This document shows, piece by piece, positions 28,683 through 29,333 of a DNA stretch of 64,000 nt. Positions within the stretch are counted from its first letter, which is position 1; each line of letters begins with the position of its first letter. The notes under the pieces are model-generated. The model did no database searches. It worked only from the letters and a program-made list of their open reading frames with translations, and was not told where the DNA came from. Source of the DNA: Escherichia phage vB_EcoM_VR7. A program made the translations under genes and the position numbers. The stretch lies in sequence record NC_014792.1. One strand, written 5' to 3'.

Positions 28683-29333
28683 TTATTTTTGTCTATTATA
28701 ATATTTCAATTCAGCGGCGCGACGTCTTTCCATTGCTTCGTCGCGAGAATCACCATAGTAAAGTTGGATTTCTTTATGATTAACAGTAATATATGATATC
28801 CATTTACCTCTGTCTTTTCTAAACTTGACACCTGTAATTGGACCAGGTGAATCTTTTCGGGTATCCTGGTCAAATGACTGTATTGATGATGAAGCCCATT
28901 CGCAAGTTTCTTTACTGTATAGCTTACATGAATTTATCCGATTAATGCTTGTACCTGCTGGACGAATACCCATATCTTCAACAAAATTCAAATAACCAGT
29001 TTTTCCCTTTGGTAGCCACCTATCACATATTTGTACACCAGCGCCACCATACTGCTTCCAACGATGATGGTTAGGATTTGTACACCTTTCAATCATGGCA
29101 GCATACGATGAATATGTAGGTTTGTCAGAAATAAATGAATAATGATATTTCTGACAGCCGCATGATTTGGTTTTACCTGATTTTATACGAGCGGCGGCTG
29201 TGACAAACTCTTTACCACAATGACAAATACAATTCCATTTAGTAGAAACTCCAGCGGTTTTATATGCTACCGAAACAAATTTGATTCCATTAATAATTTT
29301 ACCAGTCAAATCTTCTAATGGTCTTCCCATCAT
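28683..29333 (-). CDS. Homing-endonuclease-like protein with C-terminal AP2 DNA-binding domain
   Basis: 216 aa; C-terminal GVKFRKDRGKWISYITVNHKEIQLYYGDSRDEAMERRRAAELKYY resembles AP2 domain; N-terminal Cys/His-rich nuclease-like region. Confidence 0.5.
   Translation of the reverse strand: MMGRPLEDLTGKIINGIKFVSVAYKTAGVSTKWNCICHCGKEFVTAAARIKSGKTKSCGCQKYHYSFISDKPTYSSYAAMIERCTNPNHHRWKQYGGAGVQICDRWLPKGKTGYLNFVEDMGIRPAGTSINRINSCKLYSKETCEWASSSIQSFDQDTRKDSPGPITGVKFRKDRGKWISYITVNHKEIQLYYGDSRDEAMERRRAAELKYYNRQK

Follow-up and report, generated by a model that had tools for sequence, protein, structure and literature searches.

The free-standing homing endonucleases of phage T4 include the Seg (GIY-YIG) and Mob (HNH) proteins; SegF and SegG are examples of 'intronless homing', and co-conversion and marker exclusion are features of these systems. 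An architecture in which an HNH-type nuclease is joined to an AP2 domain was reportedly recognized in phages by Magnani et al. in 2004. A divergent nuclease domain was named IPA-HNH in 2023 and is absent from T4 (PMC10448857). It is represented in phage ICP1 by gp59, gp209 and gp115, of which gp59 has a C-terminal AP2 domain and is encoded by a free-standing, sporadically distributed gene at a boundary of genetic exchange (PMC10448857). CapR, a zinc-finger DNA-binding module, was first recognized in the repressor of a PLE satellite and in the T5orf172 homing endonucleases of ICP1 (PMC10448857). These systems are among the closest known counterparts of a gene on the minus strand at 28683–29333 of the window, the 64,000-nucleotide (nt) stretch of Escherichia phage vB_EcoM_VR7 (NC_014792.1) analysed here. 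Its product combines an N-terminal CapR-type zinc finger, a central domain that appears homologous to IPA-HNH and a C-terminal AP2 domain, and the gene is present or absent at a single site together with a strictly linked divergent flank that has been transferred with it between backbones. It is probably an active free-standing homing endonuclease gene, in which the CapR and AP2 domains would provide bipartite recognition, a PacI-like central domain would cut and carriers would be protected by the diverged flank.

The presence or absence of the gene at a fixed site among close relatives is the first line of evidence. In VR20, TH15 and others, the gene for a 228-residue protein and the DUF7275/DUF7277 gene are direct neighbours, with a spacer of 59 nt in VR20. 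In the window, the TTTTTG of the left junction (28686–28691) and its repeat at 29340–29345 are separated by 654 nt, whereas the empty site has one TTTTG and reads TTATTTTG^TGAAAGG in VR20. The inserted gene now has as its stop the TAA with which the DUF7275 gene terminates in genomes with an empty site, and the DUF7275 protein ends in KPFKKDE in carriers and in RPFTK in non-carriers (RPFSK in TH15). Among 37 phage records covering at least 80% of the junction, the carriers are only VR26 (two records) and phage 212; many of the non-carrier slots are empty, an unrelated ORF (open reading frame) of 74 codons occupies the slot in SP18, P896 and JS10, and Dhakavirus dhaeg has two small ORFs there. 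Relatives with 57–67% identity occur in a handful of unrelated phages (rV5-like, Phapecoctavirus and Aeromonas CC2), where they lie beside scaffold, ligase or helicase genes. The preliminary description of this DNA had proposed a homing-endonuclease type of gene and a presence/absence comparison across relatives; the comparison bears the proposal out, since the gene occurs sporadically, is inserted where two genes meet and is linked to a divergent flank. The gene is not conserved at its site, and the protein taken as a whole is predicted to include a nuclease-like fold. More generally, the interval 28624–29329 is a variable slot between the 228-residue gene and the DUF7275 gene in Gaprivervirus and Dhakavirus, and the 74-codon ORF found in it belongs to phrog_22890, for which PHROGs assigns no function.

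The second line of evidence is a 111-nt tract (29345–29455) that spans the final ∼38 codons of the DUF7275 gene upstream. Its identity is 99–100% among the three carriers and 95–98% among non-carriers, for which it is the most conserved stretch of the locus, but only 66–68% between the two groups; the G+C content is 30% in carriers and 43–45% in non-carriers. The carrier allele is found in just the three carrier records in a set of 50,697 phage records (next best match 75%). The gene to the left of the insertion in phage 212 is 100% identical to that of SP18 and 78% identical to that of the window, and over precisely the inserted gene and the 111-nt tract phage 212 becomes 99–100% identical to the window instead. 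Over the 651 nt of the gene the two differ by six nucleotides and two amino acids, and the frame is intact in all three carriers. A region conserved in non-carriers is therefore altered in carriers and co-inherited with the gene, and this is the pattern that recent homing, with co-conversion of a flank resistant to cleavage, would be expected to leave. The tract is presumed to be a co-conversion tract that has replaced the presumed target region. The target itself would lie within it, with which the preference of AP2 domains for GC-rich sites (PMC10448857; preprint 10.64898/2026.02.23.707548) is compatible. The locus fits the picture of nucleases at boundaries of genetic exchange (PMC10448857) and offers a clear natural case in which such a gene has moved, with ∼110 nt of flank, from one T4-like backbone to another.

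Two further features of the flank were observed. A second divergent patch lies within the DUF7275 gene at 29497–29546, where VR26 and TH15 share an allele 74–76% identical to the window and VR20, SP18 and phage 212 are 90–92% identical to it, showing fine-scale mosaicism near the insertion. The recognition site of PacI, TTAATTAA, is present at 29352–29359, 19 nt upstream of the gene start, in the carrier allele only, with non-carriers reading TTAATTCG. This is probably a coincidence, because the 64 kb window contains two such sites where its composition predicts about four.

The division of the protein into domains is based on an alignment of 36 homologues and an AlphaFold model (predicted local distance difference test score 90.4). 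Searches with the protein alone are uninformative: Pfam and NCBIfam return noise (OapC, Pox_int_trans, TIG_2 and a bacteriocin model, all below cut-offs) and phmmer against PDB sequences gives no match. A whole-protein search retrieves 97,395 representatives (clusters at 50% identity) at E ≤ 1e-3, of which about 4 × 10^4 have E ≤ 1e-10, although many of these ∼10^5 cluster representatives may match the zinc-finger or AP2 modules only.

Residues 6–60 (29154–29318, minus strand) form the CapR-type Cys4 zinc-finger module, with the pattern DLtGk..G...W.C.C.CG...18...SCGC, which can also be written W-C-x-C-x-C-G...S-C-G-C. The module is below Pfam detection in the protein itself, but these residues are 49% identical (E = 7e-14) to residues 131–185 of the homologue P0089, which the Pfam CapR homology domain PF21817 matches above cut-off over residues 140–185 (E = 2.8e-8). 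Cys37, Cys39, Cys58 and Cys60 are invariant or nearly so in the homologue alignment and, from their CxC...CxC spacing and the CapR homology, are likely to be the zinc ligands. The cysteine pattern matches that of CasPRIB1, one of the CasPR anti-CRISPR repressors, in which the same cluster (Cys33/35/37 and Cys56/58) is essential (preprint 10.64898/2026.02.23.707548). The preliminary description had treated this Cys/His-rich N-terminus as part of a nuclease-like protein. The cysteine cluster is indeed conserved, whereas His38, His89 and His90 are not, and because of the CapR homology and the cysteine cluster the region is assigned from its sequence as a DNA-binding finger and not a nuclease. What stands of the nuclease claim concerns another segment: part of the sequence that precedes the AP2 domain is best matched, in structure, by a nuclease-type fold, the His-Me finger. 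The CapR module is repeated up to several times in relatives. P0074 and P0091, homologues outside the window, have several CapR repeats and a C-terminal DUF2726 or PvuRts1I-like domain (weak Pfam matches only), possibly a further nuclease class that relies on CapR modules for its delivery.

The C-terminal AP2 domain that had been proposed from the last 45 residues is upheld by the family profile. It spans residues 165–212 (28698–28841, minus strand) and is predicted to consist of a three-stranded sheet packed on one helix. The Pfam AP2 model (PF00847) does not match the protein alone but matches ten of the 36 aligned homologues (best E-value 1.1e-7), and a family profile of residues 161–216 matches solved AP2 domains with E-values from 8.4e-15 to 1e-4, including WRI1 (8.4e-15), ERF096 (1.8e-5) and AtERF1 (6.9e-5). 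A Foldseek search of the full model against the PDB retrieved AP2 domains only. Some family members have a helix-turn-helix (HTH) in place of the C-terminal AP2 domain, and such an exchange of modules is typical of homing endonucleases.

The nuclease candidate is the central helical domain (residues 68–157; 28863–29132, minus strand), which on sequence comparison is homologous to the IPA-HNH domain of ICP1 gp59. It is the best-conserved part of the protein, with Arg83, Trp106, Phe117, Arg132, Tyr139, Cys144 and Trp146 invariant in an alignment of 35 sequences. No Pfam or NCBIfam model matches it, as Barth et al. also report for an IPA-HNH domain too divergent for Pfam HNH_3 (PMC10448857). In PHROGs it corresponds to phrog_374, 'HNH endonuclease' (1.8e-59), and, over residues 69–154, to phrog_8790, 'restriction endonuclease' (2.1e-26). 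Among the ORFs in the stretch of ICP1 that was searched with the central-domain profile, gp59 was the sole match (31.2 bits, over profile positions 4–83 of 89), and BLASTP also detected it (E = 0.005); an ICP1 ORF comprising gp116 and the 3' end of gp115 matches the AP2 profile and not the central-domain profile. As in the IPA-HNH proteins of Barth et al. (2023), the gp59-homologous, nuclease-like domain is followed by an AP2 domain on its C-terminal side. Among relatives that share the CapR module, the position of the central domain is occupied by HNH_3 (P0087, P0097 and others), classic HNH (P0092) or DUF2726-type (P0074 and P0091) domains. A GIY-YIG assignment, considered because of the tyrosine and arginine, was rejected: the predicted fold is helical with a β-hairpin and a helix and lacks the GIY-YIG sheet.

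At its C-terminal end the central domain has a ββα unit (residues 129–156; 28866–28949, minus strand), delineated by DSSP on the models, invariant columns and motif statistics. Strand β1 (residues 129–132, SINR), an ω-loop with the invariant Tyr139, strand β2 (144–147, CEWA) and a helix (149–155, within SSIQSFDQ) have the predicted topology of a His-Me finger, and PacI is the best structural match for the domain. The catalytic histidine expected at the end of β1 is absent and is replaced by the invariant Arg132; this R-type motif occurs in 205 of 255 family sequences. PacI is itself a His-Me finger without the histidine, in which a tyrosine of the ω-loop stands in for it and one aspartate and one asparagine hold the metal (PMC5714182; PMC4081073). 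Arg132 and Tyr139 are placed as in PacI, and by analogy Asn131 and Asp155 are candidate metal ligands, Tyr139 could act as general base or nucleophile and Arg132 could contact the phosphate. The residue before the arginine and that at the helix end are D/E and N in 103 motif matches and N and D/E in 78, as in this protein (Asn131 and Asp155); the combination is broken (N...N or D...D) in four, the remainder being in shifted registers of the search expression. One acid and one amide kept in either order would fit a preserved metal site.

The comparison with PacI (PDB entries 3m7k and 3ldy; His-Me finger group 20) has its bounds, as identity to the central domain is 11% and there is no match at the sequence level. 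PacI, a restriction enzyme, is a homodimer that has two structural zinc sites and an 8 bp recognition site, whereas the VR7 protein is modular, with separate DNA-binding domains and the behaviour of a mobile gene. It is a tentative suggestion, and somewhat doubtful, that the central domain represents a very large class of His-Me finger nucleases in which the histidine is always arginine (lysine in ICP1 gp59) and the ω-loop tyrosine does the chemistry as in PacI. If so, PacI-type catalysis would be a major mechanism of phage homing, not the curiosity of one restriction enzyme, with the nuclease delivered by interchangeable CapR, AP2 and HTH modules; should the domain be active through the loop tyrosine, this small protein could reveal the chemistry used by a very common family of phage nucleases and would supply a new modular DNA-targeting scaffold. 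A mycobacteriophage protein described in 2025, the 'hidden HNH' of Pacc40, has been superposed on PacI; proteins with an AP2 domain are among its BLAST hits (PMC11855218).

Taken together, these features suggest the following course of events. The gene would share a minus-strand transcript with the DUF7275 gene upstream of it, to which it would also be translationally coupled. The CapR-type finger and the AP2 domain would jointly recognize a long DNA site, which the histidine-less, PacI-like His-Me finger domain of the IPA-HNH type would cut or nick. In a mixed infection with a relative lacking the gene, cleavage would fall near the highly conserved, GC-richer 3' end of the DUF7275 gene, repair with the carrier genome as template would bring in the 654-nt gene together with ∼110 nt of flank, and the diverged sequence of that flank would render carriers immune.

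Two results weigh against the nuclease reading of the central domain. Alignment of the domain with nine canonical HNH_3 domains using hhalign is not significant, either full length or over the core (P = 0.5 and 0.22), although the register obtained sets the Asn-Arg pair on the Asp-His pair of HNH_3. Foldseek retrieved no nuclease for the full model in the PDB. Pfam at E ≤ 10 returned no HNH match for ten family members that lie nearer to the D-R...N-C-R-W consensus, and the central-domain profile matched PDB sequences by chance only (pyruvate formate-lyase activase, E = 0.16). The two acid/amide arrangements are clades, so the counts given above represent few independent events. His-Me fingers that lack both the histidine and an equivalent tyrosine are considered inactive (PMC5714182), and the histidine is missing here.

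The missing histidine favours the main competing explanation, in which the protein is a nuclease-dead, sequence-specific DNA-binding protein with active CapR and AP2 domains and a central domain that serves as a scaffold. Such a protein could be a transcriptional repressor or an anti-defence or anti-competitor factor like PLE CapR or CasPR, acquired as an accessory 'moron' by ordinary recombination, and the occupation of the same slot by unrelated small accessory ORFs in other phages would agree with this. The homologues P0089 and P0099 consist of CapR and AP2 without any nuclease, and the CasPR proteins silence cas genes by DNA binding for which the same cysteine cluster and the AP2 domain are needed (preprint 10.64898/2026.02.23.707548). 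However, in the CasPR-like relatives a short linker replaces the central domain, which in the VR7 protein is a segment of 90 residues and the most conserved part of a very large family, and its seven invariant residues include Arg132 and Tyr139 in positions corresponding to those of an active enzyme. A repressor would also leave the linked, diverged 111-nt flank unexplained, whereas self-immunity of a nuclease predicts such a flank. This explanation is accordingly regarded as unlikely. That the gene is a decaying homing endonuclease, which homed once, is now inactive and is kept by linkage only, is less likely still: its sub-branch has lost the aspartate before Arg132 and the asparagine before β2 that most family members keep, and at this site it is limited to three close genomes, but the frame is intact in all carriers, very few substitutions separate phage 212 from the window, all three domains are modelled with confidence by AlphaFold, the transfer into the SP18-like backbone looks recent and the N...T...D variant recurs in 66 motif matches from diverse sequences and is therefore a stable type.

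Read as an active homing endonuclease gene, the locus is a member of a class that has been described before: its architecture, the IPA-HNH domain and CapR (an existing Pfam family) are all known, and RefSeq already applies nuclease labels. Compared with ICP1 gp59, which has a lysine in place of Arg132, the VR7 protein has an additional N-terminal CapR module; in ICP1, CapR was described with T5orf172 nucleases and not with IPA-HNH, and the VR7 gene lies in a T4-like (Tevenvirinae) genome, whereas T4 has no IPA-HNH genes (PMC10448857). Canonical HNH_3–AP2 homing endonucleases (I-HmuI type, His-Me group 2) share the order of nuclease then AP2, and in P0087 and P0097 an HNH_3 domain stands between the CapR module and AP2, but their motif is D-H...N...N where that of the VR7 protein is N-R...Y...D with no Pfam HNH_3 match. 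The CasPR and PLE CapR proteins share the N-terminal CapR with the same CxCxC...CxC spacing, with or without a downstream AP2 domain; they have linkers instead of the 90-residue His-Me-like domain and come from Bacillota prophages or satellites, and no cas or capsid target is evident for the VR7 protein. As with the Seg and Mob genes of T4, a free-standing gene lies between conserved genes of a T-even-type phage with a gene-linked polymorphic flank, but the T4 proteins have other nuclease and DNA-binding domains and show no sequence similarity to the VR7 protein. What may be added is the combination of CapR, IPA-HNH and AP2, its occurrence in a T4-like phage and the PacI-like Arg/Tyr reading of the active site throughout a very large family. 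VR7 gp135 and VR26 gp129 are at present labelled 'hypothetical' or 'restriction endonuclease' (the latter for the RefSeq copy of VR26), and homologues in unrelated phages are labelled 'HNH endonuclease' in RefSeq; a free-standing homing endonuclease gene of the CapR/IPA-HNH/AP2 type would be a better annotation.

The reading frame itself is real. The complete ORF runs from the first ATG to a TAA at 28683–28685, encodes 216 amino acids that include every peptide previously quoted and is 100% identical to gp135 of VR7 (Gaprivervirus). The first ATG (29333) overlaps the TGA stop of the upstream gene (29330–29332). A second ATG at 29330, annotated as the start in VR26, gives 215 amino acids; since a Shine–Dalgarno-like AAGGA (29337–29341, minus strand), within the last codons of the upstream gene, precedes it by 6 nt and homologues begin with MGR, it is likely to be the start codon. 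Consensus scans found no promoter above the expectation from shuffled sequence and no terminator belonging to the gene, which is therefore probably co-transcribed with its neighbours. No paralogue was detected elsewhere in the window by tblastn. The surrounding 6 kb are 98% identical to Escherichia phage vB_EcoM_VR26 (Gaprivervirus, Tevenvirinae) and form a T4-type minus-strand operon with denV, e (lysozyme), nudE, e.2 and a run of small genes.

Two minor features of the neighbourhood are noted. The conserved spacer upstream of the 228-residue gene (28636–28682), present in carriers and non-carriers, contains an imperfect inverted repeat, TGGGGC...GTCCCA, and on the minus strand a promoter-like match, TGTACA-17-CATAAT. 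At 30580–31539, also on the minus strand, four tandem small ORFs (74, 75, 65 and 93 amino acids) end in the motif W-x-x-S-S-x(0-2)-C (WYPSSC, WYNSSMSC, WVSSSYEC and WVSSSSEC) and constitute a paralogue array whose members are annotated only as hypothetical proteins in VR26, VR20 and SP18.
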